Positions 2,924 to 32,000 of a stretch of DNA of 32,000 nt are shown here, in pieces. The position numbers and the translations under genes were made by a program. Below the pieces are notes generated by a model that saw only the letters and a program-made list of their open reading frames with translations, ran no database searches and had not been told where the DNA came from. Each line of letters starts with the position of its first letter. The first letter of the stretch is position 1. The DNA is from Aliivibrio fischeri ES114 (lineage in GTDB: Bacteria > Pseudomonadota > Gammaproteobacteria > Enterobacterales > Vibrionaceae): NCBI RefSeq assembly GCF_000011805.1, contig NC_006842.1; one strand, given 5' to 3'.

Positions 2924-2931
2924 GGAATTTT

Positions 2932-7732: not shown

Positions 7733-7734
7733 TC

Positions 7735-8214
7735 ATGCGTCACCAACGCGGATCATTTAGCGTTGGATTACTTCAATACCTTTCAATATCCCTCATTATT
7801 CTGGTGTTCTTCACTAGCTCATTACTTAATGTCTTGTCTGATATGCGCCTTGCAAAAGAGATTCATGTATCAGTTCAAGAAATAAGGCAAAAAAGCGCGT
7901 TGCACTACGCAAACCAAGTATTGCAAAGTCGCTGTTTGCCTCAAACCACATTAACAATGGCGTTAATTGGAATACCAGATAATGACGGGTTGGCTAAGTA
8001 TGATGTTAAGTACATTCAACGAGCGCAACCCAATAGCGCACCCTCTGGAATAGAGATCCGTGCAACCTTACACGATAAAGAAATGGTTGAACGTGTTGCA
8101 CGATTGCTATCCCCAACTCAACAAAACAACGACACCTTTATTTTTCATTTTCCATTAAGAAATCAGTTACATGATTGGCAACAATTAAATGTAAATAACG
8201 GGTGTATCAAATAA
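7735..8214 (+). CDS. prepilin-like protein (putative minor pilin)
   Basis: Leader MRHQRG|S followed by a hydrophobic helix (LSISLIILVFFTSSLL). Cys67 and Cys157 could form a pilin D-region disulfide. No SLT or peptidase motif despite occupying the R64 pilT/pilU position. Confidence 0.45.
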   Translation: MRHQRGSFSVGLLQYLSISLIILVFFTSSLLNVLSDMRLAKEIHVSVQEIRQKSALHYANQVLQSRCLPQTTLTMALIGIPDNDGLAKYDVKYIQRAQPNSAPSGIEIRATLHDKEMVERVARLLSPTQQNNDTFIFHFPLRNQLHDWQQLNVNNGCIK

Positions 8215-8224
8215 GGAAACCAAA

Positions 8225-9181
8225 TTGAAAAAACAACGAGGCTTTGCTTCCATTGTTTCGTTACTTATTGTTACTGCCGCTTTAATCATTGGTATTCAAC
8301 AATGGTCTGCGTACAAAACAAAGCAACGCATCATAGCAACCAGTGAATCTTTTTATAACCGTGTGTTATTTATCAATGAACAATTTCATGCGTTCGCCCA
8401 CGATAAATACTTATCTGGTGTAGGCATTAACACACAACATATTTTCCCATTCAAATTTATCGACTTAGAAGGAGATTATCTACCTACATGCTCAAATGAA
8501 GACAATCAGAAAGGGTACTGTTTTAAATACAATCAAACGCCTTGGGGGGAAATAGCAGAGAAAGATTACGTTGTTGTTCCCGTTCCTAATGCTATTAGTC
8601 CTACCCACTATCGAGCTGAACTTACGCTGACATTGCCTGATAAAAACAATGATGCATTGAAGTTTGATAGAGAGGCCACGATCCAATTATTCGCTCAACT
8701 TCCTAACATCACTTATGACGAGGTAAAAAACCAAATTGTTTTACGTATTGAACGTCCAGATAAAGCACTGGCTTATGATTCATTAGTAAAACGAAGCGGT
8801 GATGATTCAACGTTATTAGGCGATTGGGATACAGGAGGCAACCACGCCATAACCAACGCAAAAGACTACACAATCAGAAATAGCGACGGGAGTCAGCAAT
8901 TAGTCAGTACAGGGTTAGTCAAAATCTTTCAGGTTAAACACGGGGATTTTATAGATAAACCCAAATGTCCTGAGAACCAGCAACCCGATCTAACTTTAAG
9001 TCTTCACACTGTCATTATCTCCAACAAATACACCTTAACAGGCAGTATTAAGCCTTTCAGGTTGTCAGAAACCGCCACCCAATGGCAAGCAGGACTACAA
9101 GTTAGAGTAGTTCTAAATTCAACAGGTAAAGCAGACAAAATAACCACTGGAATTATGACTGCTTTTGTTCAATGTAAATAA
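8225..9181 (+). CDS. pilV: PilV-like prepilin-type tip/adhesin protein
   Basis: TTG start with RBS AAGGAAAC upstream. Leader MKKQRG|FASIV plus hydrophobic helix (SLLIVTAALIIG). 318 aa, last pilin-like gene as in R64. No shufflon repeats are seen at its 3' end. Confidence 0.6.
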   Translation: MKKQRGFASIVSLLIVTAALIIGIQQWSAYKTKQRIIATSESFYNRVLFINEQFHAFAHDKYLSGVGINTQHIFPFKFIDLEGDYLPTCSNEDNQKGYCFKYNQTPWGEIAEKDYVVVPVPNAISPTHYRAELTLTLPDKNNDALKFDREATIQLFAQLPNITYDEVKNQIVLRIERPDKALAYDSLVKRSGDDSTLLGDWDTGGNHAITNAKDYTIRNSDGSQQLVSTGLVKIFQVKHGDFIDKPKCPENQQPDLTLSLHTVIISNKYTLTGSIKPFRLSETATQWQAGLQVRVVLNSTGKADKITTGIMTAFVQCK

Positions 9182-9194
9182 AAAAGGAAAGACC

Positions 9195-9617
9195 ATGAAA
9201 ATGAAGAAAACACTCTTAGCTACCGTATTATTCGGATGCGTATTAAGCGGCTCAGTATTTGCGGAAAAAGTAACGTATGACAAAGCCGTTGCCGATGCAC
9301 AAGCTTACCACGACTCATTACCTCAGTATGAAAACGCTATTGAGGGTTTAGGGCCAGATGAAACGGGTAGCACAACCGCTGGTGCAAACCAGATGGGGAA
9401 ATGGGTAAATCTTGGTGCATCCAGCATAAAAAGCGCGGGAGCTTATACCACTATGCTTGCACCTAGTGCCATTGGTAAATCCTGTATAAAAGGGGACAGA
9501 GGATGGATCTCCAAAACACGCGAAGAATGTATTATTTTTAATGGTGGTAGCACATCATGTAGAAAATACCGAACGGAGCTAGACGCTGAAAACGGTTACA
9601 AAGCGGAATGCCGCTAA
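9195..9617 (+). CDS. secreted 4-Cys protein, last gene of the pil operon
   Basis: I prefer ATG 9195 (RBS AAGGAAAG at 9184-9191) to the ORF-track start at 9165. Signal peptide MKMKKTLLATVLFGCVLSGSVFA|EK (an atypical LFGC lipobox is also possible). Followed at once by a strong terminator. Confidence 0.5.
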   Translation: MKMKKTLLATVLFGCVLSGSVFAEKVTYDKAVADAQAYHDSLPQYENAIEGLGPDETGSTTAGANQMGKWVNLGASSIKSAGAYTTMLAPSAIGKSCIKGDRGWISKTREECIIFNGGSTSCRKYRTELDAENGYKAECR

Positions 9618-9789: not shown

Positions 9790-10821
9790 ATGAAAATCAA
9801 AAATATTGCGTTACTTATGGCTGGGTTATCCTTTAATGCACTGGCTATTGAAAACGGCACATCGGTGAATTGGAATAACTACGATGACATGGTCAAACTG
9901 TATTCTACTGATAACGCCCAAACTTGCTCAGGCACACTGATTGCAGGTAAATACCTTTTGACTGCTGCGCACTGCTTAGTGCAAGACAACCCAACAACAA
10001 AAGTAAAATCAACTTGGGGGCAGCAATACACCGTCATTACTGACAATACGCACCCTGATTATGATGTATTTAATGGTAATTGGCATGACGTGGCAATTTC
10101 TGAATTAAACCAATCAATTGATGCAAAAACTGTTCATTTCTTTGCTGATTTAACCAAAGATACGGTTAAAGAAAATGACGCATTGCGTGTTTTTGGCTTT
10201 GGTGCAACGGGCGAACAACTTAATTACGCATCATTAACTATGATTAATGAAGTTGGTGGGCCGCAAGACCGCTTAGATGGTAAAGTCATTACCAACGGTG
10301 CTGGTGATATTACTGGAGGCAATACCATTGGTGGTGATTCAGGCGGTGCATGGCTAAATAAAAATAATACTATTGTCGCCACTCACAAAGGCGGAGATTG
10401 GTTAAACTCTGTTAGAGAAACCTACTCAACCAACTTGCATTACAGCAAACAATTTATTTTAGATACGGTCAATGGTTGGCATTACCCAACGCTGGCGAAT
10501 ACTTCTAATGGCACCGCAACCATTACCGTTCAATCACTGCACGTAAACCCAACAGTGGATACGGCTTACACCTCTGGTGATGCAACTATTACTGGCGGTA
10601 CTTGTACAACAATGAGCTCGGTATCTGCATTTAAAACGTGTACTTATGAAATCGAAAGCCAAGGCGGTATCGGTGCACTTCACTTAACGGATAATGAAAC
10701 TATCTCAATCAATAAACCAACACCAACGCCTGAAACCTCTGGCGGTGGAGAAGAAGGCGGTAGTCTTGGATTCTTATCCCTAATCGGATTACTTGGCCTT
10801 GGTGTCATCAGAAGAAAATAG
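9790..10821 (+). CDS. VesB-like trypsin-fold serine protease with C-terminal GlyGly-CTERM (rhombosortase) sorting signal
   Basis: Catalytic triad motifs LTAAHC, WHDVAI and GDSGGAW. Signal peptide ...SFNALA|IENG. A beta-rich C-terminal domain follows. C-terminus is SGGGEEGGSLGFLSLIGLLGLGVIRRK (Gly-Gly, TM helix, basic tail). Confidence 0.9.
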   Translation: MKIKNIALLMAGLSFNALAIENGTSVNWNNYDDMVKLYSTDNAQTCSGTLIAGKYLLTAAHCLVQDNPTTKVKSTWGQQYTVITDNTHPDYDVFNGNWHDVAISELNQSIDAKTVHFFADLTKDTVKENDALRVFGFGATGEQLNYASLTMINEVGGPQDRLDGKVITNGAGDITGGNTIGGDSGGAWLNKNNTIVATHKGGDWLNSVRETYSTNLHYSKQFILDTVNGWHYPTLANTSNGTATITVQSLHVNPTVDTAYTSGDATITGGTCTTMSSVSAFKTCTYEIESQGGIGALHLTDNETISINKPTPTPETSGGGEEGGSLGFLSLIGLLGLGVIRRK

Positions 10822-12449: not shown

Positions 12450-14903
12450 ATGAAACCCACAAAATACGCAACGGCCATCAATCAAGAAGTATCACTTGCA
12501 CACTACATCCCATACTCAAGTCATTTAACTGATTCGATATTGATCACCACCGATGGTGATTTGCTGCAAATGTTCCGACTCAGTGGTGTTGCTTTTGAAA
12601 CAAAAGACAATGAAGAATTATCATTGTTACACCAACGCCTCAACACGCTATATAAAGGCTTATCAGAATCCGATGTCAGTTTATGGACTCACGTCATCCG
12701 TCGTAAAGTAAAACACACCATTAACGGTGAGTTTAACCAACACTTTGCAGCGCATTTTGATGCGGTATATAACGCGCAGTTTGGCGAAGAAATCATGACC
12801 AATGAGTTTTACGTCACGGTCATACAGCGTTCAACCGATAGACTCAAAAAGCTCAATCGTAATATTGACGCGATTAAAGCACGTTTAGTTGAGCGTATTG
12901 ATGCTTTTACTGAAGTGACCGATTTAATAAAAAATAACTTAGAAAGTTATCATCCAACATCACTGACCTGTAAAACCAATCAGCAAGGTACTGTTCTCTC
13001 TGAGCCATTAACCGTATTAAATTACTTATTGACCCACGAATGGGTCAACGTTCATAAACCAACGGGCGAAATTAAACACGCCATTGGTAATGCTTGGATA
13101 AAAATTGGCTCAGATACCATTGAGCTAAACTCAGTATCTAGTACGCATTATGCACAAGGGATCGATATTAAAGAGTACGCTTCTCGCTCTTATAACGGAT
13201 TGCTCAACGGATTACTTTATAGTGAGTTTGAATTTGTGCTCACTCAATCCTTTAGCTTATATCCACGAAAGATAGCTGCAAAGTTCATTAAGACTCAAAA
13301 AAGAAGAGGCAAAAGCTCAGGGGATGGAGCGATTACTCAGATACAAGATTTAGATCAAGCATCAAATGATTTACTCGATGGTCACTTTGCAATGGGGGAA
13401 TATCATTTCTCATTACTTGTGTTTGGTGATTCCATTGATAACGTTCGTCAATATCGTAGTGAAGCTCAAAAAAGTTTATCTCACTCAGAGTTACTTTGTG
13501 TTCCAATCAAAATCGCTACCGATGCGGCGTTCTTTGCTCAACTCCCTGCCAATTGGGGGTATCGTCCTCGCGTGGTTGGTCTAACGAGCCGAAACTTCGC
13601 CAGTTTCTCACCTTTCCACAATTTTTTAATTGGGAAAAAAGAAGGGAATCCTTGGGGCGATGCGGTCACTCGTTTAAAAACCCTATCGGGACACCCTTTC
13701 TATTTTAATTTTCATTACACCCTCACAGGTGATGATAATTTTAATGAAAAAGTGGCTGGTAACACCCGAATGATAGGCATGACAGGAACGGGAAAAACCG
13801 TTGCTCTTGGCCTACTCTATTGCCAAGCTCAAAAATACGCACAACACAGCCCGTTTAGTACGGTATTTTTTGATAAAGATCGTGGTGCAGAAGTCATGAT
13901 ACGAGCACTTGGTGGTAACTACCTACGAGTGCAAAATGGCAAACAAACAGGGTTTAACCCTCTTCAGATGAACCCAACCCCACAGAATATTTCGTTTCTA
14001 AAACGTTGGGTTCGCCAGTTAGTAGAGTCAAAACAACATCCTCTAACAACGTTAGATGAACGCAGTATCAGCCAAGCGGTAGACACCGTAATGAGAATGG
14101 AAAAACCATTACGTCGATTAACCTTAATTAATCAAAACATTGCGGTTGGAACCAGCAAAGAAGAGAGAGAAAACAGCATAAAAGCGCGGTTAGATAAATG
14201 GTGTCAAGGCGGTGAATTTGCATGGGTGTTCGATAATGATGTAGATCTACTCGATTTCAATTCAGCAACCAACATCGGCATCGATGGCACTGAGTTTCTT
14301 GATAATCACGATATTCGTACTCCCATTTGTTTATACCTACTGCATAGAATGGATGAAGTCATTGATGGCCGTCGATTCTTTTATGTCATGGATGAAGCGT
14401 GGAAATGGGTTAACGATGACGCTTTTTCTGACTTTGTCGGAAACAAACAACTGACGATACGAAAACAAAATGGGTTTGGTGTCTTTGCGACACAATTACC
14501 CTCTTCTCTGCTTGGCTCACCTCAAGGTGCAGCGTTAATCGAATCATGCTCAACTGAGATTTATTTACCGAATCCAAAAGCAAAGCATGACGAATACGTA
14601 ACTGACCTTGGATTATCTGAAAAAGAGTTTTCTATCCTAAAAGAGTTTGGAGAAAAAAGCCGTTTATGCCTGATAAAACAAGGCAATCAATCAGCTATCT
14701 GCTCACTCACAATGCCTGGTATGAGTAATGAATTAACTCTCCTTTCTGCAAGCTCTGACGAGCTGCCTCTCTTTGATGAATCAATCAAAGAAGTGGGAGA
14801 AAATCCTATCGATTGGATCCCAATTTTTCTGCAAAAAGTTCGAGAAGAAAAAGAACGTAAACAAGGAGTTCGTAATGAACAACATCACCCTATTGTGTCT
14901 TAG
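12450..14903 (+). CDS. virB4: VirB4-family T4SS ATPase
   Basis: 817 aa. Walker A GMTGTGKT and Walker B FFYVMDEAW. Position after virB2/virB3. Confidence 0.95.
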   Translation: MKPTKYATAINQEVSLAHYIPYSSHLTDSILITTDGDLLQMFRLSGVAFETKDNEELSLLHQRLNTLYKGLSESDVSLWTHVIRRKVKHTINGEFNQHFAAHFDAVYNAQFGEEIMTNEFYVTVIQRSTDRLKKLNRNIDAIKARLVERIDAFTEVTDLIKNNLESYHPTSLTCKTNQQGTVLSEPLTVLNYLLTHEWVNVHKPTGEIKHAIGNAWIKIGSDTIELNSVSSTHYAQGIDIKEYASRSYNGLLNGLLYSEFEFVLTQSFSLYPRKIAAKFIKTQKRRGKSSGDGAITQIQDLDQASNDLLDGHFAMGEYHFSLLVFGDSIDNVRQYRSEAQKSLSHSELLCVPIKIATDAAFFAQLPANWGYRPRVVGLTSRNFASFSPFHNFLIGKKEGNPWGDAVTRLKTLSGHPFYFNFHYTLTGDDNFNEKVAGNTRMIGMTGTGKTVALGLLYCQAQKYAQHSPFSTVFFDKDRGAEVMIRALGGNYLRVQNGKQTGFNPLQMNPTPQNISFLKRWVRQLVESKQHPLTTLDERSISQAVDTVMRMEKPLRRLTLINQNIAVGTSKEERENSIKARLDKWCQGGEFAWVFDNDVDLLDFNSATNIGIDGTEFLDNHDIRTPICLYLLHRMDEVIDGRRFFYVMDEAWKWVNDDAFSDFVGNKQLTIRKQNGFGVFATQLPSSLLGSPQGAALIESCSTEIYLPNPKAKHDEYVTDLGLSEKEFSILKEFGEKSRLCLIKQGNQSAICSLTMPGMSNELTLLSASSDELPLFDESIKEVGENPIDWIPIFLQKVREEKERKQGVRNEQHHPIVS

Positions 14904-14997
14904 CCTTTTATTATTAAGCGGCTGCTCTAGCGTCTCACCACACGCTCAACCATCCTATCAACAAGCTCCGATTGAGGTGATTAATGATGCTCAATAA
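14875..14997 (+). CDS. small VirB7-like lipoprotein (40 aa)
   Basis: ATG 14875 with RBS AAGGAG at 14863-14868. Lipobox LLLLSGC|SS. It overlaps the virB4 3' end (29 nt) and the virB8 start (14 nt). The ORF-track start at 14773 is rejected. Confidence 0.55.
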   Translation: MNNITLLCLSLLLLSGCSSVSPHAQPSYQQAPIEVINDAQ

Positions 14998-15667
14998 AAA
15001 AGAACAAGCCGCTTTATTTGAAGGCTCTGAGGCTCTGGATTTTGAAGCATCAAAAATGTTAATGGTCGCTAAATCAGAGAATCGAGCGTGGAACATAGCA
15101 AAAGGCGCATGTGCTCTCACGTTTTTATCATGGTTAGCTTTGATCTTTCTTATGCCACTAAAAACGGTTGTGCCTTACGTCGCAATGGTGAATGAAACCA
15201 CAGGTCATACACAATTACTGACAACCATCACCGAAGAGACCATTAGCAAACAAGATGCCCTTGATGCTTATTGGGTGGCCTACTACGTGCGTAATCATGA
15301 AACTTATGATTGGTACACCATTCAAGACAGTTATGACAACACACTGTTACTTTCTAGTGACGAGGTTGGCCGTGATTATGCTGGACTCTTTGAAGGCAAT
15401 AATGCCCTTGATTCGGTATGGGGTAAACGAGTGAAAGCTCAGGTTCGTTTACTCAGTAAACCTATCATCAAGAATAACATTGCTACGGTACGATTTGAAA
15501 AAACCATTAAATCCGTCGATGACACAGGAAAAGGACAACCGACGGTATGGATAGCAACACTTGCTTATCAATACAAATCAGACCCACTAACAGAAGAAGA
15601 ACGCCTTAAAAATCCATTAGGATTTCAGGTGGTCAGTTATCGATTAGATCCCGAACTTATGGAATAG
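14984..15667 (+). CDS. virB8: VirB8-family T4SS protein
   Basis: 227 aa with an N-terminal TM (ACALTFLSWLALIFLM). The C-terminal hallmark NPLGFQVVSYRLDPE is present. RBS GAGGTG. Confidence 0.85.
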   Translation: MMLNKKEQAALFEGSEALDFEASKMLMVAKSENRAWNIAKGACALTFLSWLALIFLMPLKTVVPYVAMVNETTGHTQLLTTITEETISKQDALDAYWVAYYVRNHETYDWYTIQDSYDNTLLLSSDEVGRDYAGLFEGNNALDSVWGKRVKAQVRLLSKPIIKNNIATVRFEKTIKSVDDTGKGQPTVWIATLAYQYKSDPLTEEERLKNPLGFQVVSYRLDPELME

Positions 15668-15673
15668 AATAAT

Positions 15674-16582
15674 ATGAAAGCCTCGATTTGGTTATTAAGC
15701 TGTTTTGTTTTTACCCCTTGTTTTGCTCTAAACATCCCCGTTCAATCTCCCCTAGACTCCAACATTCAATACTCAACTTATCAAGCTAATAACGTGGTCG
15801 AAGTTACCGCTTACATCGGTATGGCTTCACATATTGTGTTTGATAAATCAGAAAAAATTGAATTGGTTCAATCTGGTTTTTCAGAAGGATGGGAATTTAT
15901 TAAAAATGGAAATCATCTTTTTATCAAAGCGCGTTCAGTGCCAAGCACTGAAACGATCACCGATCATTTAGGTAACGTGACCACAAAAGAGATCTTCATT
16001 ACTCCGTCGAAAGAATGGGAGACCAACTTAATTGTGGTTACAAGTAAACGCAATTACACCTTCCTTCTTACGTTAGGAAAAGGGGATAAAGGACGCAGAC
16101 AAAACACCTACCGTTTGTCGTTTCAGTATCCAGAAGAGAAAGCCGTTCAAGATAAGATTGTCGCGGATATTGCCGTTGAAAAAACAAAACTGGCTAAAGC
16201 CAAAATCGATACTCACTCTGAGCCTGAGATCAGAAACTGGAAATACGTACAACAGGTCGGCAAAAATTCCAGAAACATAGCCCCGTATCGAGCATGGGAT
16301 AATGGTCGCTTTACCTATTTATCATTCAAAAAGAATAGCGAGATACCGGCTATTTTTATGGTATCTGAAACGGGACAAGAAACCCTTGTCAATATCAACA
16401 TTGATATTAACGATCCTGATACGGTCATCATCCAACGTATTGCAAAACAATTTGTATTACGCCTTGATGATTCCGTTGTCGGTATCACCAACAAAGGATT
16501 CAATACGTTAAACGTCAACAATGATACGGGTAGCACCATTAAGAACGTGGTCAGAGAAGTAAAAGGAGTGGATACACCATGA
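15674..16582 (+). CDS. virB9: VirB9/TrbG-family T4SS outer-membrane core protein
   Basis: Signal peptide MKASIWLLSCFVFTPCFA|L, 302 aa. The motif RNWKYVQQVG fits the VirB9 N..Y...G pattern. ATGA overlap with virB10. Confidence 0.8.
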   Translation: MKASIWLLSCFVFTPCFALNIPVQSPLDSNIQYSTYQANNVVEVTAYIGMASHIVFDKSEKIELVQSGFSEGWEFIKNGNHLFIKARSVPSTETITDHLGNVTTKEIFITPSKEWETNLIVVTSKRNYTFLLTLGKGDKGRRQNTYRLSFQYPEEKAVQDKIVADIAVEKTKLAKAKIDTHSEPEIRNWKYVQQVGKNSRNIAPYRAWDNGRFTYLSFKKNSEIPAIFMVSETGQETLVNINIDINDPDTVIIQRIAKQFVLRLDDSVVGITNKGFNTLNVNNDTGSTIKNVVREVKGVDTP

Positions 16583-23694: not shown

Positions 23695-24192
23695 ATGGTA
23701 TCACGACGAATAAAAGGCGTGATAATGGGTGTGATGGTTGTCACATCCTATCCGACATTTGCTGTCAGTGAAGATGAATGCAGCATTTGGATGTGCGCCC
23801 CAACAGGCTTTAGTGATTCATCATGTAAAGGTGCAAAAGACGCTTTTAAAAAACGAGTCAGAAGACATAAACCACCGCTTCCCGATTTTGCTAGTTGTAT
23901 GGTTCATAAAGATCAAATTCCCGAAGGCACACCGATTAGTCAAATGACTTATATCAACGGTGTTTCTGCTGTCATAAGAGAAACCAAAGAGTGTGTTAGT
24001 TGGGATGGAACAAACAGCAATAATCGTCATTGTTCATCATGGAAAACCATTCCTGAGCATTTAATCAAAGGGGTTGCTTGCACCAAAAACAGGCATGGTG
24101 GCGAAACTCCAAAAAATTGCATCAGCACAGTTAAGTGGGTCGAAACCTACATGGACGGTCAATTGCTTGGGGATATTTTTTATTACCAATAA
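23695..24192 (+). CDS. secreted Cys-rich protein, possibly TrbM-like
   Basis: Signal peptide ...SYPTFA|VSEDE, RBS GAGGAT. The motif ECSIWMCAPTGFSDSSC recalls TrbM-type periplasmic transfer proteins, from memory only. Starts 3 nt after the ompA-like stop. Confidence 0.35.
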   Translation: MVSRRIKGVIMGVMVVTSYPTFAVSEDECSIWMCAPTGFSDSSCKGAKDAFKKRVRRHKPPLPDFASCMVHKDQIPEGTPISQMTYINGVSAVIRETKECVSWDGTNSNNRHCSSWKTIPEHLIKGVACTKNRHGGETPKNCISTVKWVETYMDGQLLGDIFYYQ

Positions 24193-24198
24193 TAAACC

Positions 24199-24224
24199 AA
24201 AGGGCATTTTTGCCCTTTTCTTTT
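24199..24224 (+). terminator. rho-independent terminator (or attenuator) immediately upstream of mobC
   Basis: Stem AAAGGGCA (24199-24206) / TGCCCTTT (24211-24218), loop TTTT, then TCTTTT. Confidence 0.6.
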
Positions 24225-24236
24225 AAAGAGCTTCTT

Positions 24237-24578
24237 ATGAGTAAATCCACAACTTATGTCGGCTTTCGATTACCAAATGATGAGCATGAAAAATTCACGG
24301 CCAAAGCGAATAAAGCCAACATGGAGCTGACCGAATTTTTACGCGAAGCCATCTTAAAAAATAAAACCATTATCGTTAAAAAAGAAGAACGATCCGTTGA
24401 TAAACAAAAGCTGATTTTCCTTTACAAGAAAACCTCAAATAACTTGAACCAACTCGCTAAACAGATCCACACAAGTAATAGAGCTGGCACTCTCTCCAGA
24501 GAAAAAATGAACCATGCAATAGCATCTATTGAGAACATCATGAAATTACTAGAACAAGGAATAAACGATGTTAATTAG
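24237..24578 (+). CDS. mobC: MobC-family relaxosome accessory protein
   Basis: I prefer ATG 24237 (MSKSTTYVGFRLP...) because the ORF-track start at 24135 would run through the terminator. RHH-like N-terminus and the MobC signature SNNLNQLAKQIH. Overlaps the relaxase start by 11 nt. Confidence 0.75.
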   Translation: MSKSTTYVGFRLPNDEHEKFTAKANKANMELTEFLREAILKNKTIIVKKEERSVDKQKLIFLYKKTSNNLNQLAKQIHTSNRAGTLSREKMNHAIASIENIMKLLEQGINDVN

Positions 24579-27500
24579 AGTTGGAGGCGGCAACGCTGGA
24601 ATTGGTGATTATCTAAAACACGGGATCAAAAATGGACGTGAGCATACACGAGACGAACTCGACCACAGAGTGATATTAGAAGGCAATTTAGAAGCAACTG
24701 AACTCATTATTAATGGGATGAACACGAATGCAGAACGCTACTTACACATCACTCTCTCGTTCAAAGAAGATCATATTGATAATGAAACATTAAGTAACAT
24801 CACTTCTGAATTTAAAAGCTTTGCAATGAAAGCGTACAACGAAGATGAATATGATTTTTATGCCGAAGCCCATATTCCTAAAATCAAAAGTGTTGTTGAT
24901 AAAAAAACAAAAGATCTTATCGAACGTAAACCACATATCCATGTTGTTATTCCCGAATACAATTTAGTTACCCATAAACGTTTAGAACCTTTTGGTCGAG
25001 TCGAGCTCAACACAAAATACGTTGATGCCTTTCAAGAAGTAATCAATGAAAAATACGGCCTTGCCAGTCCCAAAATGAACATAAGAAGCGATTTCACCAA
25101 TGAAAGCACGGTGATTGAGCGAAGCAAAGGAGATACGTTCAAAGGTGCAAATAAAGCCATTAAGGAAAAGATATTAACGCAAGTGATGGCAATGCCATCA
25201 TCGAGCCTGAACGAATTATCTGACTACTTAATAGGACAAGGTTATGAGGTTAAAGAACGAAATAAAGGTAAGGAAAACAATTACCTCAACATCAAAGAGA
25301 AAGGAAAATCAAAAGGCATAAACTTAAATGATGCCGTATTTAGTGAGCGTTTTTTATCGTTATCCATAGATCAAAAACAACACAATCTCAGCCATTCATC
25401 AACCGATGATTACATTGCTCCAGAGCAGGGTAAATACCAAGCAACCAAAAAACATCATACTGATTTAGAGCACTGGAATGAACATCGCTCTCATGAAGTT
25501 AGGCACATCACGCGACGCAATAGAGCCACTTATAAGGCCATGACTAAAGCTGAAAAAGTGGCATTCATCCAACAGAAAAAAAAGGCATTCTTAAATGACG
25601 AGCACATTATCCCAAGAAGAACACAACGAGATTGTGTTGAAGACATTAACCGAAATCTCAGCGCAGCAAAACGACATTTGTCTCATGCTCAACGAAATTG
25701 TGGAAACATTGAATCAGGAGCAAGAAATATCGCTTATCGACGAGATCTCCTTGCTCTTAATGCCGCTATTCAGCGATGTACAGGACATCAAAAACCATCT
25801 GAACCTATCCCCGATAGGATCACAGGACACAGCAGAGTAACCCAACAAATCCAATCAGACATTATAGAAACCGAAATAGCCAAGCGCATAAGCTCAGATA
25901 TAGCCACAATCAAAAAATCCATTAATGCCTCTGATTTACTTCGTGATTTATCTCAATCTCACGGTGTCATTCCCAAAAAATACGTCATTACTCAAGCTAA
26001 AGATGGCAGTGATCGAATTGTATGTGGAACAAGACAACTGAACGTTGCTGACTTTCTCACAAAAGAAATCGGTATGTCATGGAAGGAAGCGAAACAGCAA
26101 CTAGAGCAGTCCTTTGCAAGACAGCAAGGCCATAACTTACAGCCGAGTACTGAGCACGACAGAGAAGACTTTACGCTTAGATGGCAACCAAGCCATAAAA
26201 AAGAACGAAAGCAAGCGTGGAAAGCACAATACAACAATGAAAAGGCGTATCGCTTTGCTATCAAGAAGACCTTTAATCTTGAAAAAAACGCCATCTATGC
26301 CGATCAAACCCTTTCCAAAAAAGAACGCAATATCGCTCTTTCCATCGCAAGAATGAACAAAATCATTAGTGATATGGAATACCTAGAGCAACAAGCATGG
26401 GAGAGAAATCAACTTAATACGCACTACCCCGATTTAGTTACCGCTCAATACCAACGCTTTGAGCATCGTCATATTCCAATTGAGAGTAAAATTATGAATA
26501 ACCATATTAACGGAACCATTGAAGCACACGGCTCTGACCATTACGAATTTAACAAAGAAAACAAGAAAAGCTACTACGTCAAATTGAAGCTACCGAACAA
26601 TCAAATAAAAACAGTATGGGGCGTTGGATTAGAAACCGCGATAAAAGAAAGTAATGTGAGTATCGGCCAAGCCATCTCATTAAAAAATATCGGTAAGAAA
26701 AATGTAACAGTGCCATCTGATATTAAAGATGAAAACGGAAAAGTACTTAAAACGGTTGACGTTGATACACACCGTAATTATTGGGAAATCACTCCTGAAC
26801 GAACCGTTCAAGATGATATTAATCAAGCTATTTCCTTATCCGATGAATCCATTGAACTAAACAATCAAGGATTAGAAGATCAAGCTGACGATAAAGAGCA
26901 CGACGCATTAATGCTCATGTATTCGATAACTAAAGAGTCAAAAGAAAATCCATTTAATGAGCATACTCACCCACTCCTTCATCGAATGTTTATTAAAGTA
27001 AATAGTGAAAAAATAATCGAGCCTGAAAAAGAAATCAGCCCGACTTCAAAAGATAATACGAAACCAAAACCAATCAGTATAACGCTATTAGATAAACGTG
27101 TTTTATTGGATAGAAATTTAGAAGCAAGCCGTTTATTAATTATGTATCCAAAACTAAAAGAACTGGGTATCAGTGCTGAGCATATTTCTAAAACTGACAA
27201 AGGTGATCGAATTTATTTCAACGATAAATCATTAACTATAAGCAAATTAATGAAAGAAACCATGCAATATAAAACAAAACAAATCGTTGCTGAATTAACC
27301 CCTATTTACGAAACACAAGAAAAAGATAAACAACGTGTTATTGAATATCAGAAACGTTATTTAAATGATCCATCAAATAAAATCGATCTTGGAAAAGAAA
27401 AAACGATTGAATTAAATATTCGCTCAGGCCAAAAAGAGCCAGAAGTCATTAATGAGACTGACAAAGAGCGAACACAACAAGCATCGTTAGCACCACAAAA

Positions 27501-27903
27501 TTATGACGATATTACTCACCAAACCAATGAAAAAGGACACGTAACCTACTCCATGAACAAAGAGCCTATTGTGATTGATCGCGGTGATAATGTTCATATT
27601 GCTCATGATTCAGATAAAGCAATAGAGATCGGATTGCGACTATCAATTGAAAAATTTGGTAAGACACTCGACATTCGAGGCACTGACGAATACAAAGCCA
27701 AGGTGGTTGAAGTTGCCGTTAAAAACAATCTGAAGGTTCAATTCTCAGATCCAACATTGAACGAAATGATGAAAGAAAAAATGCAACAATTCAGAGATGG
27801 TGAAAACGTCATTCAAAAAGCAGAACGTCAATACAAGAAAGACAACGAGCCTCAAAAATCACATGATCTTGATAAAGAAAAATCTCACGATCACAATCGA
27901 TAA
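24568..27903 (+). CDS. conjugative relaxase (MobA/VirD2-type HUH domain) with long C-terminal extension ending in an LPD7-like domain
   Basis: Candidate catalytic Tyr in GIGDYLKHG, motif YLHITLSF, and histidine motif KPHIHVVIPEYN. The C-terminus DSDKAIEIGLRLSIEKFGKTLDIRGTDEYKAKVVEVAVKNNLKVQFSDP resembles LPD7 domains. 1111 aa. Confidence 0.85.
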   Translation: MLIRVGGGNAGIGDYLKHGIKNGREHTRDELDHRVILEGNLEATELIINGMNTNAERYLHITLSFKEDHIDNETLSNITSEFKSFAMKAYNEDEYDFYAEAHIPKIKSVVDKKTKDLIERKPHIHVVIPEYNLVTHKRLEPFGRVELNTKYVDAFQEVINEKYGLASPKMNIRSDFTNESTVIERSKGDTFKGANKAIKEKILTQVMAMPSSSLNELSDYLIGQGYEVKERNKGKENNYLNIKEKGKSKGINLNDAVFSERFLSLSIDQKQHNLSHSSTDDYIAPEQGKYQATKKHHTDLEHWNEHRSHEVRHITRRNRATYKAMTKAEKVAFIQQKKKAFLNDEHIIPRRTQRDCVEDINRNLSAAKRHLSHAQRNCGNIESGARNIAYRRDLLALNAAIQRCTGHQKPSEPIPDRITGHSRVTQQIQSDIIETEIAKRISSDIATIKKSINASDLLRDLSQSHGVIPKKYVITQAKDGSDRIVCGTRQLNVADFLTKEIGMSWKEAKQQLEQSFARQQGHNLQPSTEHDREDFTLRWQPSHKKERKQAWKAQYNNEKAYRFAIKKTFNLEKNAIYADQTLSKKERNIALSIARMNKIISDMEYLEQQAWERNQLNTHYPDLVTAQYQRFEHRHIPIESKIMNNHINGTIEAHGSDHYEFNKENKKSYYVKLKLPNNQIKTVWGVGLETAIKESNVSIGQAISLKNIGKKNVTVPSDIKDENGKVLKTVDVDTHRNYWEITPERTVQDDINQAISLSDESIELNNQGLEDQADDKEHDALMLMYSITKESKENPFNEHTHPLLHRMFIKVNSEKIIEPEKEISPTSKDNTKPKPISITLLDKRVLLDRNLEASRLLIMYPKLKELGISAEHISKTDKGDRIYFNDKSLTISKLMKETMQYKTKQIVAELTPIYETQEKDKQRVIEYQKRYLNDPSNKIDLGKEKTIELNIRSGQKEPEVINETDKERTQQASLAPQNYDDITHQTNEKGHVTYSMNKEPIVIDRGDNVHIAHDSDKAIEIGLRLSIEKFGKTLDIRGTDEYKAKVVEVAVKNNLKVQFSDPTLNEMMKEKMQQFRDGENVIQKAERQYKKDNEPQKSHDLDKEKSHDHNR

Positions 27904-27938
27904 TGAGTTGAAAATGCTACGTCAGTAGTGAAGGGTTT

Positions 27939-27956
27939 CAAAGGGTTTACCCTTTG
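27939..27956. promoter_or_regulatory. 8-bp perfect inverted repeat CAAAGGGT-tt-ACCCTTTG flanked by TACGT(C)AGTAG direct repeats
   Basis: IR arms are 27939-27946 and 27949-27956. An AAGGGTTT half-site is repeated at 27931-27938. Direct repeats TACGTCAGTAG (27918-27928) and TACGTAGTAG (27980-27989). Function is not established. Confidence 0.4.
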
Positions 27957-28027
27957 GCACAAGGGATGTTTTTGCCCAATACGTAGTAGGGGGTGAAAAC
28001 GTCCCCGTCGTGCCTATCTTTGATCTA

Positions 28028-28133
28028 GGAAGCATCGAGAAACCAAATAAAGACCATCAGATACCACAAAGGAAGCGTAAAGAAGCAAAAAAGACCAGAA
28101 AGAAACCATGAAAAAACCAAAAAAGAAGCCTTA
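28028..28133 (+). repeat. phased array of ten 10-11-bp units (RGAAGC and A-N-ACCA motifs), two sets of five, directly upstream of the stb-like operon
   Basis: Motif starts: GGAAGC 28028, AAACCA 28040, AGACCA 28051, ATACCA 28061, GGAAGC 28071, AGAAGC 28081, AGACCA 28092, AAACCA 28103, AAACCA 28114, AGAAGC 28124. The top strand is almost T-free. Confidence 0.65.
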
Positions 28134-28135
28134 TT

Positions 28136-28651
28136 ATGAATAATTCCATAGAACGCTTACGTGAAGGGATCCAAGAGTTAATTAATACCCACAGCAACGC
28201 ATCTAAGATCTACATAATAAGATCTTTATTTGATCTGCTTGATGACGCAATTAAGAACAGAGTATCTATAGATATTCTTGTTAATTACCTCAATGAAAAC
28301 CATGTAAACATCAGTAAGCATTATCTTAAAAATGCACTATTACGGATACGTAGAGAAAAAGGCATCACCAAAAAAAAACCATCTCAAGTATCGCTATCGC
28401 AAAACCACCAAGTCACAAGCGATAAATCGCTTGTGACCACAACAACGAAAAAAAGTAACGAACCCGATTATCAAGCTGAGTTCGACGACATCAATCAGCG
28501 TTATAAAAACGCAGAAACCACAGAAGAAAAATTCATCATTCTTGGTGGAGACCCCAAAAAACTTGATGGACATTCTTTGAGAAAACAACGCGAAATGTGC
28601 ATCGAATTAAAAACCCAATTTAATCGTAAATACCGTCCATTTATTAAATAG
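28136..28651 (+). CDS. hypothetical protein, positional analogue of a StbA-type DNA-binding adaptor
   Basis: 171 aa with a helical N-terminal ~80 aa, a Lys-rich hinge encoded partly by an A9 run, and a polar C-terminus. First gene upstream of the StbB-like ATPase. No motif recognised. Confidence 0.4.
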   Translation: MNNSIERLREGIQELINTHSNASKIYIIRSLFDLLDDAIKNRVSIDILVNYLNENHVNISKHYLKNALLRIRREKGITKKKPSQVSLSQNHQVTSDKSLVTTTTKKSNEPDYQAEFDDINQRYKNAETTEEKFIILGGDPKKLDGHSLRKQREMCIELKTQFNRKYRPFIK

Positions 28652-28662
28652 AGAATTAAAAT

Positions 28663-29361
28663 ATGAAAATTGCAGTAATTAACTTTTCAGGTAACGTTGG
28701 TAAATCTGTTATTTCACAGCACTTATTACAACCTCGTATGAATGATGCAAAAATCATTGCCGTTGAATCCATTAATTCAGATGGCACAAATAATGAAACC
28801 ATTAAAGGCAAAGAATTTGCCGATATTATGGAAAGCATCAGTGAAATGGATGATGTTATTGTTGATATTGGTGCATCTAACGTCGAAGACTTTATGAAAA
28901 AAATGAAATTATTCAGTGGAAGCCAAGACGATTTTGATTATTTTATTGTTCCAACAATAAATAAACCAAAACAATTAACTGATACACAATCCACTATTAA
29001 TGAATTACACGAACTAGATATTGACCCTGAATGCATTAAAGTTGTTTTTAATATGGTTGATATTGACGACAATATGAAACGTGTTTTTGCCGATCTAATT
29101 GATGATTGTGACCACATGGCAACCATTAATACAAAAGCCATTATTTATGAAAACGAGTTATTCACTCGTTTAAAAAGCGAATCAAAAAGTATTGCTGAAT
29201 TAATTAATGACGACACCGATTATAAAACTCAAATTCAAGCAACCGATAACCGTATTACACGTCGTGAATTATCCCATAAGCTAGGAACGAAACGATTAGC
29301 AATAGGCGTTTCAAAACAGCTCGATAATACATTTAAAGTTCTCTTTGGTAAGAAGGCATAA
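28663..29361 (+). CDS. StbB/ParA-like P-loop ATPase
   Basis: The N-terminus MKIAVINFSGNVGKSVISQHLLQPRM matches my memory of the StbB-type deviant Walker A (NFSGNVGK[ST]). Walker B-like DDVIVDIGASN. 232 aa. Confidence 0.7.
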   Translation: MKIAVINFSGNVGKSVISQHLLQPRMNDAKIIAVESINSDGTNNETIKGKEFADIMESISEMDDVIVDIGASNVEDFMKKMKLFSGSQDDFDYFIVPTINKPKQLTDTQSTINELHELDIDPECIKVVFNMVDIDDNMKRVFADLIDDCDHMATINTKAIIYENELFTRLKSESKSIAELINDDTDYKTQIQATDNRITRRELSHKLGTKRLAIGVSKQLDNTFKVLFGKKA

Positions 29362-29364
29362 TAT

Positions 29365-29925
29365 ATGAGCTCAGAAGAACTAGTTTTACCATCCAAACCA
29401 ATGACGTCATATCAAGAAGCGTATTTACGCGAAATATTCAGTGAAATCATTTTACTTCAAAAGAAACTCACTGAAATTGGCAACGAATCAACCATGCGCA
29501 TTGGTATCACTCAAAATATTATTGATGAGCATTTAGAGCGTGGCTCTAAAGCTCTTGATAATTATACTCAAGCGGCCAACGCGCATTTCTCTGCGACAAA
29601 GCAAGAACTCAAAGACATTGCCGATAATGAAGTCAAAACCAGTATTACAAAATCACTCATTGATGCACACCATCAATTACTGCTCGCTAATCCGCCTAGA
29701 ATCGCCCTACGCTCCGTTTTAATGATGACCCTAGTCGCTTCTATCGTTGCAAGCACTATCGGCTTAGGAGGCGGTTATATTGCGTATAACACCCTAAACA
29801 AGAATCGATTGAGTGCCGATGAAATTCAATACATCGATAAAGGCCGATTGCTAAAGCAATCGTGGCCGATATTGTCCCCACAAACCAAAAAAGAATTAGA
29901 GCAAGCCGCGCTCGGTATTCGTTAA
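29365..29925 (+). CDS. hypothetical coiled-coil protein with C-terminal TM segment (StbC position)
   Basis: 186 aa. Starts 3 nt after the ATPase stop. TM is VLMMTLVASIVASTIGLGGGYIAY. No family recognised. Confidence 0.45.
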   Translation: MSSEELVLPSKPMTSYQEAYLREIFSEIILLQKKLTEIGNESTMRIGITQNIIDEHLERGSKALDNYTQAANAHFSATKQELKDIADNEVKTSITKSLIDAHHQLLLANPPRIALRSVLMMTLVASIVASTIGLGGGYIAYNTLNKNRLSADEIQYIDKGRLLKQSWPILSPQTKKELEQAALGIR

Positions 29926-30004
29926 GTCTTGTTTCTGTTTACCCACAATCGGCTCACGAGAGTGGGTTTAAGTCTCTTACCGCCTCATGTGGATAAACAG
30001 AAAA
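29926..30004. repeat. structured repeat unit 1 (~79 bp, long imperfect hairpin)
   Basis: 71/79 identical to 30092-30170 by hand alignment. Outer stem 29932-29947/29988-30003 (16 bp with one C:A mismatch). Inner helices 29951-53/29982-84 and 29958-62/29974-78. Confidence 0.8.
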
Positions 30005-30009
30005 TAAAC

Positions 30010-30034
30010 CTCATCGCTTTGATGGGATTTTTTT
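30010..30034 (+). terminator. probable rho-independent terminator between the two structured repeats
   Basis: Stem CTCATC (30010-30015) / GATGGG (30021-30026), 6 bp with one U:G, loop GCTTT, then A + T7 (30028-30034). The stem is weak. Confidence 0.45.
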
Positions 30035-30091
30035 ATTCCTCCCCTTAAATCATTAAATCCGAAAAAATAAGAGCACCTCGCTGTGAGTGTT

Positions 30092-30170
30092 GTCTCGTTC
30101 CTATTTACCCACAATCGGCTCACGAGAGTGGGTTTAGGTCTCTTGCCGCCTCATGTGGATAAATAGGAAT
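30092..30170. repeat. structured repeat unit 2 (~79 bp, long imperfect hairpin)
   Basis: Same fold as unit 1: outer stem 30098-30113/30154-30169 with the same C:A mismatch (30108/30159). Ends about 30 nt before the virB5 RBS. Confidence 0.8.
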
Positions 30171-30210
30171 TGGATCATGATTGTTGGGGATACTTTTTAA
30201 GGCTATCACC

Positions 30211-30951
30211 ATGCAAATAAAAACAACCATCAAGGCCATCGCCTTGGGGCTTTCGCTCACCATCCCTTCTGTACACGCTGGATTTCCTGTTTCTGTATTA
30301 GTTGATGTTCCTGGTCAATTAGCACAATTTCAAAATATGGCTCAAATGCTTAAGGAATACGCCACGATGCTAGACCAGCTCAACAAGATGCAAGAGCAAT
30401 TACAGCAAATGGAACGGGAATATAATTCCGTGACAGGGACACGGGGACTTGGGAACATTTTAAACAATCCTGATTTTTCAAAACACTTACCTGATAACTG
30501 GCAAACCATCTTAAGAAATATTCGTTATAACGGGTATGAGGGATTAGATGGTGCAGCAAAAGCATTGCGTGACGCGAGTAAAGTCATTGATTCTTGTGAG
30601 TACATTGAAGATCGAGTGGAACGTCAAAACTGCGCCGCCCTTGCACTGAAACCAGTGCAAGACCAAGCATTTGCAACAAATGCTTATCAAAAATCGTATG
30701 ATCGCACCGCTCAAATTGAATCATTAATGAATGAAATCAACAGAACGCGAGATCCAAAAGCCATCGCTGAATTAAGCGCACGTATTCAAGCTGAGCAAGC
30801 ACTTATCCAAAACGAACAAACCAAACTTTCCATGTATCAGGCAACCAGTGAATCAGAGCAACGTTTGTTGCTTCAACAACAAAAAGAAATTAACTCAAGA
30901 ACATGGCGAAGCAAAAACTATGGTGCAGATGTACCACCAATGGAGTTTTAA
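30211..30951 (+). CDS. virB5: VirB5/TrbJ-family T4SS minor pilus protein
   Basis: I prefer ATG 30211 (RBS AAGG at 30199-30202) to the TTG at 30181. Signal peptide ...TIPSVHA|GFPV. Typical FPV..LVDVPGQLAQ...QL.QMQEQLQQM coiled-coil start. Confidence 0.75.
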   Translation: MQIKTTIKAIALGLSLTIPSVHAGFPVSVLVDVPGQLAQFQNMAQMLKEYATMLDQLNKMQEQLQQMEREYNSVTGTRGLGNILNNPDFSKHLPDNWQTILRNIRYNGYEGLDGAAKALRDASKVIDSCEYIEDRVERQNCAALALKPVQDQAFATNAYQKSYDRTAQIESLMNEINRTRDPKAIAELSARIQAEQALIQNEQTKLSMYQATSESEQRLLLQQQKEINSRTWRSKNYGADVPPMEF

Positions 30952-30953
30952 TA

Positions 30954-31988
30954 ATGAAAATTACCGTATTCAATTTTATTGGAACAACAATCGACGATCT
31001 AACAAACAACTTTATTGCATCAGGTATTGGGGGGTTAATTGATATATTACAACCCTTTATCATTGCAGGAGTCACCTTGTACATTATGATCAGAGCTTAC
31101 GGCCAGATATTTGGTAAAGGTGAAGATCTCGCTATTGATTTAGTGATTCATGGCCTAACCGTGATTGCCGTTACAACCTTGGTCTTAAATATTCACAATT
31201 ACACTTATTATGTCGTCGAAGGACTCAATGCATTTGCAAGTGGTGTATCAGGAGCCATCAATAAAACCGATGGAAATATCTATAATACCTTAGATGAACT
31301 TCTTGAAAGTGGCATTGCTCAAGCCTCTTATTGTTTTGATAAAGTCGGATTGCTTAATGATTGGGGATGGGGATTTGCAGGAATAGTGATTGCAGGAGCT
31401 ATCGTTACCATTACTTTGCTATCAGCTGTCCTAATTATTGGTACTAAATTTCTTCTTACTATGTTATTCGTTATCGGACCCCTTTTTATTGTCTTTGCGA
31501 TTTACCCTGTCACCCGTCGATATTTTGAGGGATGGGTAACTAAGTTAATGGAAAACGCCTTGGTTCAAATCTTTGGGGTAATGATCATTGGTCTATCACT
31601 CAGTATTATTAGTCATTTTATCTATTACAAAGATGCCAGTAGTACAGGAGTAAATCCACTTGGCGTATCAATTCAAATTTTAATTGTGAGTGGCATTTTA
31701 AGTTGGATCATAGCTCAAATTCCTAATTTAGCTGGCTCACTGGCTGGTGGATTCTCATCAAGCTCTTTATCGTTAGCTGCTGCCGTTGCTCCTATGCTTG
31801 CGGCAACTGCAATAGGAGCAAAATTTTTAAACGGTAAAAATATACCAACTGGCGGCATATCTTCTGAAACATGGGGAGAGCAACAATCGAACCAACTACG
31901 ACAAGGTGATTCAACGTCAACACCACAAGCCACCAAAATGGCTCAATCCGTTCACGATAAAATTGCAGAGCACAACCGAAACAATTAG
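30954..31988 (+). CDS. virB6: VirB6/TrbL-family polytopic T4SS inner-membrane protein
   Basis: I prefer ATG 30954 (MKITVFNF...), 2 nt after the virB5 stop, to the ORF-track start at 30903. At least 5 TM segments and a hydrophilic C-terminal tail. Follows virB5 as is usual. Confidence 0.7.
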   Translation: MKITVFNFIGTTIDDLTNNFIASGIGGLIDILQPFIIAGVTLYIMIRAYGQIFGKGEDLAIDLVIHGLTVIAVTTLVLNIHNYTYYVVEGLNAFASGVSGAINKTDGNIYNTLDELLESGIAQASYCFDKVGLLNDWGWGFAGIVIAGAIVTITLLSAVLIIGTKFLLTMLFVIGPLFIVFAIYPVTRRYFEGWVTKLMENALVQIFGVMIIGLSLSIISHFIYYKDASSTGVNPLGVSIQILIVSGILSWIIAQIPNLAGSLAGGFSSSSLSLAAAVAPMLAATAIGAKFLNGKNIPTGGISSETWGEQQSNQLRQGDSTSTPQATKMAQSVHDKIAEHNRNN

Positions 31989-32000
31989 GTAATAGCGAGT

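Follow-up and report, generated by a model that had tools for sequence, protein, structure and literature searches.

To our knowledge, the priming of an incoming conjugative single strand in the recipient is so far understood only in part. In F-type plasmids it relies on single-stranded DNA (ssDNA) promoters that depend on RNA polymerase, and IncP and IncI plasmids have their own primases. Plasmid RSF1010 carries ssiA and ssiB, paired and sequence-related priming hairpins on opposite strands, which are recognized at oriV by the plasmid's own RepB' primase. The consensus DnaA box, TTATCCACA, is of the type found in R1 and R4 of E. coli oriC. Conversion of ssDNA has been described as reliant on host factors and actively timed (bioRxiv 10.64898/2026.01.09.698686), and several unrelated hairpin classes act as ssDNA signals in leading regions (PMC12672017; bioRxiv 10.64898/2026.01.09.698686). 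Among these, the Frpo/ssi elements of the F, ColIb-P9, and pESBL leading regions are first-entering hairpins that function only in single-stranded form, rebuild sigma-70 boxes, recruit RNA polymerase, and can provide primers.

The A-site (Masai, Nomura & Arai 1990; Masai & Arai 1995; Carr & Kaguni 2002) is a ssDNA hairpin with an R1-type box, TTATCCACA. In the accounts of that work given in PMC6127211 and PMC3105425, which cite Masai 1990, Masai 1995, and Carr & Kaguni 2002, a ssDNA hairpin with DnaA box R1 suffices in vitro for DnaA-dependent DnaB loading and priming. Hairpins are also found at the origins of transfer (oriT) of MOBP plasmids such as RP4 and R64, where a hairpin-forming repeat on a conjugative plasmid goes together with a MOBP-type relaxase. 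In MOBP origins, the repeat lies on the 5' side of the nick region, and the interval between stbA and mobC/relaxase is the classical oriT position (PMC3772185).

We analyzed a window of 32,000 nt from Aliivibrio fischeri ES114 (NC_006842.1), by which we mean the whole stretch of DNA studied, in which twin hairpins lie 5' of virB5. Their stems contain DnaA boxes, and the hairpins belong to a family that is conserved across related plasmids. Elements of this kind have been known from in vitro studies since 1990; their occurrence as a conserved family next to a conjugative oriT seems not to have been described before. We found no annotation or paper describing these hairpins in the sources covered, to which the pES100/pES213 transfer-function literature did not belong.

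The twin hairpins and their plasmid

The window region is 99.6% identical to A. fischeri plasmid pES657-44 (NC_016853.1), a pES100-type conjugative plasmid that types as MOBP/MPF_T, and the window is a pES100-like A. fischeri conjugative plasmid. With a 296-bp region as the query, a BLAST search of PLSDB gave pES657-44 as the sole match. The plasmid encodes an SSB and a topoisomerase III; no primase gene is annotated on it, and none was found among the plasmid ORFs scanned. The genes and features around the hairpins are as follows.

24135-24578, NikA/MobC-like gene
24568-27903, relaxase gene (1111 aa, LPD7 domain)
28136-28651, gene in the stbA position (stbA-like)
28663-29361, StbB/ParA-like ATPase gene
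29365-29925, + strand, gene in the stbC position for a 186-aa protein with a membrane anchor; no further gene precedes copy 1
29926-30004, hairpin copy 1 (c1), directly 3' of the stop codon of the 186-aa gene; covariance model R1 score of 91.3 bits on the + strand and 24.9 on the - strand
30010-30034, + strand, terminator-like hairpin CTCATCGCTTTGATGGG plus a T7 run, between c1 and c2
30092-30170, hairpin copy 2 (c2), ending 40 nt 5' of the virB5 ATG; covariance model R1 score of 91.6 bits
30211-30951, + strand, virB5 (PF07996, E = 2.7e-49), the first gene after c2
30903-31988, virB6/TrbL gene

A preliminary description of this DNA had drawn the units as two direct copies offset by 166 bp, and our recount gave the same 71 identical positions out of 79. 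The eight differences (at 29930, 29934, 29937, 29971, 29979, 29998, 30001, and 30004) were confirmed and include two real compensatory changes in the stem between c1 and c2, from T:A to C:G and from G:C to A:T. A repeat finder returned a direct repeat of two copies of 93 nt with 85% identity and 166-bp spacing (29911-30003 and 30077-30169), along with inverted arms of 16 nt that are 94% complementary (29932-29947/29988-30003 and 30098-30113/30154-30169). The fold also stood as drawn: a 16-bp stem that includes a C:A mismatch, then a 3x3 internal loop, then GGC/GCC and GAGAG/CTCTT, and at the top an 11-nt loop. Folded as RNA, the two copies had z-scores of -4.0 and -4.1 (+ strand) and of -5.8 and -6.6 (- strand), with none of 200 shuffles equally stable in either case. 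As ssDNA, c1 and c2 gave z-scores of -4.8 to -5.7, and the copies of the family taken together, on both strands, folded at -15 to -30 kcal/mol (z = -2.4 to -11.6). A 33-nt core has two sites in the whole window, one per hairpin. The alternative pairing of ACCCAC with GTGGGT, which would have given a competing fold, was not upheld, being unconserved in orthologues.

The terminator placed earlier between the copies corresponds to the hairpin with a T7 run at 30010-30034. Its stem is retained in most Aliivibrio orthologues and lost in lineage L026. No promoter-like sites were reported between 29400 and 30400 on either strand. A sigma-70 promoter, whether for virB5 or for an antisense RNA, was considered and not detected, and small ORFs on the - strand across the spacer were set aside, their reading frame being unconserved between orthologues.

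Relatives of the hairpins in other plasmids

A covariance-model search, which had been suggested as a check for further copies, did find them. Plasmid pES657-44 contains exactly three, namely, the twin and an inverted third copy (c3) at 1528-1615 of that record, about 500 bp past the end of the window, between brxR-like and ArdC-like genes. The twin occupies the same site in 10 further Aliivibrio plasmid lineages or assemblies, whose VirB5 proteins are 76 to 100% identical and whose stbC-position proteins go down to 69% identity. In Vibrio relatives, the gap between the stbC-like gene and virB5 is only about 12 nt, and one related hairpin is found between stbB and the stbC-like gene. A second, inverted hairpin beside a DUF3560 gene is present in three of four Vibrio plasmids (pLH24-3, pVNTG4, and the Vibrio sp. 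B1ASS3 plasmid); in pFORC14, a search of 28 kb gave the first copy only. Of the two copies on a Plesiomonas plasmid, one is inverted relative to the other, and their branched top is larger. No hairpin was detected in a decayed Photobacterium plasmid, in the 5 kb of an Enterovibrio locus, or in R721, of whose 75.6 kb the first 50 kb were searched, yet the relaxases of R721 and Enterovibrio are related to that of the window. The preliminary description mentions neither c3, nor the relatives found in other genera, nor the DnaA boxes described below.

A multicopy imperfect palindrome, inserted in Aliivibrio where the Vibrio relatives have a gap of about 12 nt, could be the relic of a small mobile element of the MITE, REP, or attC-like kind. 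We find this scarcely credible. Three copies per plasmid at syntenic sites are not a dispersed repeat, the sites are syntenic even in diverged plasmids and are under strong purifying selection, and no target duplications were seen. The attC core sites (RYYYAAC/GTTRRRY) are absent from the sequence. In searches for exact matches only, scans of 185,579 species genomes with a first core pattern, and of JGI metagenomes and IMG/VR with a second and shorter one, gave no match; the first pattern was too strict, since it also missed lineages L019 and L020, which carry the hairpin. A permissive Rfam scan of 28000-32000 returned three chance-level matches only, none of them in the hairpin region. The units are thus neither REP, MITE, nor attC elements and match no Rfam family, in keeping with the earlier remark that they belong to none of the standard repeat classes.

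Conservation and covariation of the stem

We aligned the stems of 20 copies from 10 plasmids. In this alignment, 93.2% of the stem cells pair, compared to 80.2% in shuffles and 37 to 52% when the partner strand was slid. Changes on both sides occur in 11 of the 19 stem pairs. Ten outer stem pairs covary (UA/CG 10:9, AU/GC 14:5, and UA/AU 12:8), and the eight pairs nearest the internal loop, which are the DnaA box, are invariant or nearly so. The apical stem has been swapped outright between lineages. It exists in at least five unrelated sequences, all of which pair: GAGAG/CTCTT, GGGA/TCCC, CTGGAAA/TTTCCAG, CTGGAGA/TCTCCAG, and GGGGAGAC/GTCTCCCC. Even the Plesiomonas copies keep the internal-loop bases CACAATCGG and CCTCATGTGG. 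Sequence identity between Aliivibrio lineages is 88 to 96% in the hairpins, 72% in the spacer, and 56 to 80% in the flanking genes.

The proposal that selection acts on the structure is borne out by this degree of pairing, by the two-sided changes, and by apical stems that still pair after replacement. The hairpin is asymmetric, with covariance model R1 scoring 91 bits on one strand and 25 on the other, and both orientations are present in each plasmid.

DnaA boxes in the stem

Inspection of the conserved part of the stem gave four boxes in the twin.

29939-29947, + strand, one-mismatch DnaA box TTACCCACA, left arm of c1
29988-29996, - strand, perfect DnaA box TTATCCACA, right arm of c1
30105-30113, + strand, one-mismatch DnaA box TTACCCACA, left arm of c2
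30154-30162, - strand, perfect DnaA box TTATCCACA, right arm of c2

The two perfect boxes are the only ones in the 32 kb, where 0.39 would be expected, and both are hairpin right arms. Because the left arm reads TTACCCACA, the C:A mismatch that had been noted as conserved (C at 29942) is position 4 of the box; on the - strand, the same mismatch is G:T. Plasmid pES657-44 has four perfect boxes, two in the twin and a third inside the third hairpin. Across the family, the DnaA box consensus TTATNCACA lies inside the duplex stem with at most one mismatch in 22 of 22 copies and is perfect in 9. Position 4 is a C:A or G:T mismatch in most copies, and some copies, such as c2 of L026, have perfect boxes on both arms. 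The Vibrio copies keep the motif with the degenerate position changed (TTATGCACA plus ATATCCACA), the Plesiomonas copies keep it as ATATCCACA, and some distant copies have added a second tandem box. In several orthologues, the right-arm box is split by a 1-nt insertion (TTATCCA-N-CA), the inserted base being T, A, or C. This insertion breaks a linear box, yet in the hairpin it is a mere bulge, which favors the folded form.

The same DnaA-box evidence applies to a second reading, in which the four boxes within 245 bp are duplex DnaA-binding sites and the hairpin potential is secondary. Through such sites, DnaA could control or obstruct transcription into virB5-virB6, or the sites could serve to titrate DnaA or to help in vegetative replication. 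That c2 lies immediately 5' of virB5, where no sigma-70-like promoter was detected, is consistent with them, as are the copies with perfect boxes on both arms. However, duplex sites do not need covarying outer and apical stems, and many orthologues tolerate the insertion that disrupts the linear box. A likelier place for the vegetative origin than the hairpins is found near 14.9 kb of pES657-44, where an AT-rich stretch contains a DnaA box; a Pfam search with the putative rep ORF of this plasmid gave no match. We consider the duplex reading rather unlikely.

We also weighed a role in polycistronic mRNAs, where c1 would form the 3' end of the stb message and c2 would lie in the virB5 5' leader, each as a stabilizing or RNase-processing hairpin with an incidental likeness to a DnaA box. 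The RNA folds are significant, c1 stands directly after a stop codon and before a terminator, and a possible long-range helix (30037-30052/30178-30190) encloses c2 just before the ribosome-binding site. All clear copies show the same form on the sense strand of their neighbors, although this orientation argument comes down to only two independent placements. Against an RNA element, the sense strand has C:A at box position 4 and at two other stem columns, where the antisense strand has G:U, and the antisense form (the CATGAGG strand, with G:T and not C:A) was the more stable in 9 of 10 comparisons. Moreover, what is invariant in the stem coincides exactly with a DNA-binding consensus, and Rfam offers no matching family. 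The regulatory or stabilizing RNA role put forward in the preliminary description is weakened by the sense-strand mismatches and by an invariant stem that is a DNA-protein motif; its folds stand, and we regard the role itself as unlikely.

Position of the probable oriT

The leading idea of the preliminary description was that the relaxase recognizes the hairpins, which would make them a secondary or duplicated oriT. Relaxases do typically target hairpins. Another part of the window has oriT-like features.

27933-28018, + strand, oriT-like block with GGGTTTCAAAGGGTTTACCCTTT, GGCAC...GTGCC inverted repeats, and an invariant CGTCGTGCCTATC
28042-28119, + strand, six ACCA-containing direct repeats in two triplets with 10- to 11-bp spacing, 5' of the stbA-like gene

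The oriT-like block lies between the relaxase gene and the stbA-like gene. Its inverted repeat is AAAGGGTTTACCCTTT, 5' of the GGCAC...GTGCC arms, and its end (CGTCGTGCCTATC) is similar to the RP4 nick region CACCTATCCTG|C, the repeat again lying 5' of it. The block is 93 to 96% conserved among Aliivibrio lineages and is recognizable in Vibrio and Enterovibrio. In R721, the same block is found between stbA and mobC/relaxase, followed by ACATAGCA iterons; the ACCA repeats of the window resemble a StbA-type iteron array. The MOBP oriT description thus fits 27933-28018. In the hairpins, we found no YATCCTG|Y-like nick region within about 8 nt of the inverted repeat, nor a YATCCTGY-like motif elsewhere within or beside them, and in this they differ from the RP4 and R64 origins. 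The canonical nick motif YATCCTGY, searched as a candidate in its own right, occurs only inside genes and without inverted repeats.

Two further observations could speak for relaxase recognition. Some public assemblies contain a chimeric single copy lacking exactly 166 bp, as recombination between two oriT copies would yield, and the inverted repeat of the R721 oriT has the 8-mer ACAATCGG in common with the hairpin. The deletion is equally well explained by recombination or slippage in the 33-nt core. In addition, the hairpin shifts position between genera and was undetected in the first 50 kb of R721 and in the Enterovibrio locus despite a homologous relaxase, whereas the separate MOBP-like block is better conserved and common to R721. 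Judged by sequence comparison, the hairpins are probably not the oriT, the block at 27933-28018 is the better candidate, and a duplicated oriT at the twin is very improbable. This corrects the likely site of the oriT on pES100-type plasmids.

From the layout of the block, we infer that the + strand would be transferred, with the stb genes, the hairpins, and virB5/virB6 entering first and the relaxase gene last. The brxR-like, ArdC-like, radC, and hok genes would enter after virB5/virB6, still early; most of them lie on the - strand, which is what a leading region would be expected to show. The predicted direction of transfer depends on the weak resemblance to a MOBP nick region.

A possible role in priming of strand synthesis

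The distance from the probable nick site is 1.9 to 2.2 kb for the twin, which lies on the predicted first-entering side, and about 4.5 kb for the third, inverted unit. Given this position, the likely job of the units would be to start complementary-strand synthesis on transferred or otherwise exposed ssDNA. Since a hairpin with a DnaA box suffices for recruitment of DnaB-DnaC and no primase gene was found, we read the units, as the best of the explanations weighed though one that still falls short of probable, as A-site-like ssDNA hairpins of the leading region that would recruit DnaA to prime strand synthesis after transfer.

In this model, the 16-bp basal stem would rebuild a duplex DnaA box (TTA[T/C]CCACA / TGTGG[A/G]TAA) when the plasmid is single stranded; beneath this box is a variable clamp stem, and on top of it a variable apical stem-loop. 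Once bound to the hairpin, host DnaA would load DnaB-DnaC onto the neighboring ssDNA coated with SSB, and DnaG primase would then synthesize primers for DNA polymerase III. DnaA binding and helicase loading, like the active strand or copy and the direction of transfer, are what we infer from the arrangement.

Like the A-site, the units form a stable hairpin from one strand and have a consensus DnaA box in the stem, and the proposed role is the same, that is, conversion of ssDNA to duplex through host DnaA, DnaB, DnaC, and DnaG. In contrast to the A-site as the available accounts describe it, a comparison made by description only, the units have a mismatch at position 4, conserved internal loops, and an extra apical stem-loop, and they form a family of two to three copies in both orientations beside an oriT. 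They also recall ssiA and ssiB in being paired and on opposite strands, but the motif here is the box of the host DnaA, and no plasmid primase was found.

Several findings do not sit easily with the A-site-like reading. The presumed transferred (+) strand carries the less stable form of the twin, with C:A, and the G:T form on that strand is c3. The conservation of the AATCGG and CCTCATG internal loops is unexplained by a DnaA box alone. The mismatch at position 4 could lower the affinity for DnaA. Because the hairpin was undetected in the part of R721 searched and in the 5-kb Enterovibrio locus, the element may not be essential to this transfer system.

Their place in the presumed leading region would also suit another kind of ssDNA signal, either a small ssDNA promoter or a structural roadblock that times complementary-strand synthesis, comparable to the Frpo/ssp elements known from F and IncI plasmids. 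The hairpins would likewise be first to enter and act single stranded, and the inverted copy (c3, or B) lies 5' of genes that would be templated by the presumed transferred strand. However, the known ssDNA promoters are several-fold larger and were selected at a threshold of < -75 kcal/mol (PMC12672017), compared to -15 to -20 kcal/mol for these hairpins of only 72 to 80 nt. Known promoters rebuild -35 and -10 boxes, and no such hexamers were found in the stems, which hold a DnaA box; c1 and c2 are also wrongly oriented to drive any gene from the presumed transferred strand. Such a signal therefore seems quite unlikely.

Returning to DnaA-recruiting hairpins, a simple model in which all copies act on the transferred strand fails, since copies exist in both orientations. 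A speculative alternative is that the two orientations serve the two strands: in the recipient, the inverted copy would act on the transferred strand, and in the donor, the twin would act on the strand that is retained. This one-per-strand model fits the layout in five plasmid lineages. That conserved hairpins of this kind, one per strand at the start of the leading region, are how primase-less conjugative plasmids of Vibrionaceae and Plesiomonas start DNA synthesis for transfer is an idea we hold as doubtful. If it were true, the ABC primosome known from in vitro work would gain a natural role in conjugation. A DnaA-box hairpin beside an oriT would be a third solution to priming, one that borrows the host initiator. 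The system is tractable: A. fischeri and pES100-type plasmids are open to genetics, the element is only 80 nt long, and natural variants separate pairing from the box.

Origin of the twin and a deletion variant

The similarity between the copies extends beyond the hairpins.

30052-30097, + strand, decayed second copy of the upstream gene's 3' end (compare 29886-29931); the repeat extends 15 nt 5' of the hairpin

Since 29886-29931 aligns with 30052-30097, the twin is a tandem duplication of about 166 bp that comprised the 3' end of the gene, the hairpin, and a T-rich tail. The coding relic of the second unit has since degenerated, unlike its hairpin. The similarity of the left flank reported earlier is real; it is not a special flank, being the edge of this larger duplication, which includes the 3' end of the upstream gene. 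The outer-stem pairs that distinguish c1 from c2 are constant in nearly all lineages (the exception is one pair in c2 of L026), which implies that the duplication is old. Within each plasmid, the apical parts of c1 and c2 are alike, which suggests gene conversion. The hairpins were also considered as recombination junctions and rejected, as the mosaic breakpoints of lineage L014 (about 28010 and about 29420) lie away from them.

Contigs from SRR25249433-44 contain a single chimeric copy that joins the c1 left arm to the c2 right arm and lacks exactly 166 bp. The junction falls inside the 33-nt identical core, and a contig from another run ends in that core. The assembler k-mer was presumably 31, so the core is only 2 nt longer. 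A collapsed repeat should break the contig, and the deletion variant is therefore probably real. If it is, the second copy and the terminator are dispensable for maintenance of the plasmid.

Concerted evolution of the twin hairpins

Within the window plasmid and in each of its orthologues, the apical 20 nt of the twin hairpins (copy 1, 29926-30004; copy 2, 30092-30170) were near-identical to each other, and they differed from plasmid to plasmid. The outer stems remained copy specific. Judged from these alignments, the two copies and their orthologues are undergoing concerted evolution.

A third copy, which carries tandem boxes (TTATCCACATATACACA), is inverted relative to the twin and is flanked by brxR-like and ArdC-like genes, was identified in four related Aliivibrio plasmid sequences.

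Inverted third hairpin copies
L001 (pES657-44), 1528-1615: about 500 bp past the window end
L005, 6115-6210
L019, 4790-4885
L026, 5220-5316

The apical stem of the pES657-44 third copy (CTGGAAA/TTTCCAG) does not match that of the twin but does match that of the inverted copy on the Vibrio plasmid pVNTG4. In L026, the apical part of copy 2 matches that of the third copy.

Five sequences (L006, L007, and L016 to L018), all Logan contigs from SRR25249433-44, carried one chimeric hairpin with the left arm of copy 1 and the right arm of copy 2. They lacked exactly 166 bp, and the terminator lies within the missing stretch. Either a natural deletion by recombination or slippage produced this arrangement, or it arose as an artefact when the 33-nt identical core was assembled.

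A possible helix around copy 2

We found that TCCTCCCCTTAAATCA at 30037-30052 could pair with TGATTGTTGGGGA at 30178-30190, enclosing copy 2 directly 5' of the virB5 ribosome-binding site. RNAalifold retained this helix across eight orthologues (CCCUAAA/UUUAGGG), with almost no covariation. The CTCCTCCCC run in this region, which looks like an anti-Shine-Dalgarno sequence, was invariant.

The oriT-like block and stbA-side repeats

Upstream of the stbA-like gene, two features were located in the window.

27933-28018: oriT-like block, inverted repeats followed by an invariant CGTCGTGCCTATC
28042-28119: ACCA repeats, two triplets with helical spacing

The block is kept in Aliivibrio, Vibrio, and Enterovibrio and in the IncI2 plasmid R721, and the order of block, repeats, and stbA-like gene matches the R388-like oriT-iteron-stbA layout. 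The relaxase gene lies upstream of the block on the same strand in the window, whereas it is divergent in R721. In R721 (29030-29060), ACAATCGG occurs inside the oriT inverted repeat. The hairpins have the identical 8-mer after their DnaA box, a coincidence that is probably due to chance.

Compared over window positions 28010-29420, the A. fischeri plasmid L014 proved to be mosaic, combining an L019/L022-type stbA-stbB-(5' stbC) module with window-type flanks on both sides. One breakpoint falls where the oriT-like block ends.

Other features of the window and pES657-44

pES657-44 contains a probable vegetative origin and rep gene.

14750-15100: AT-rich stretch that includes a perfect DnaA box at 14949-14957
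15110-15760, minus strand: adjoining unannotated ORF, apparently frameshifted, with no match in Pfam

Several genes (virB4, virB9, and the relaxase gene) are split in the pES657-44 record and intact in the window, which suggests that the record contains sequencing frameshifts. A set of type IV pilus genes, like those for the thin pili of R64/R721, occupies window positions 1-9617 and 9790-10821, which also encode a trypsin-like protease. The protease is one intact ORF in the window and is annotated in pES657-44 as two genes (protease and GlyGly-CTERM protein).
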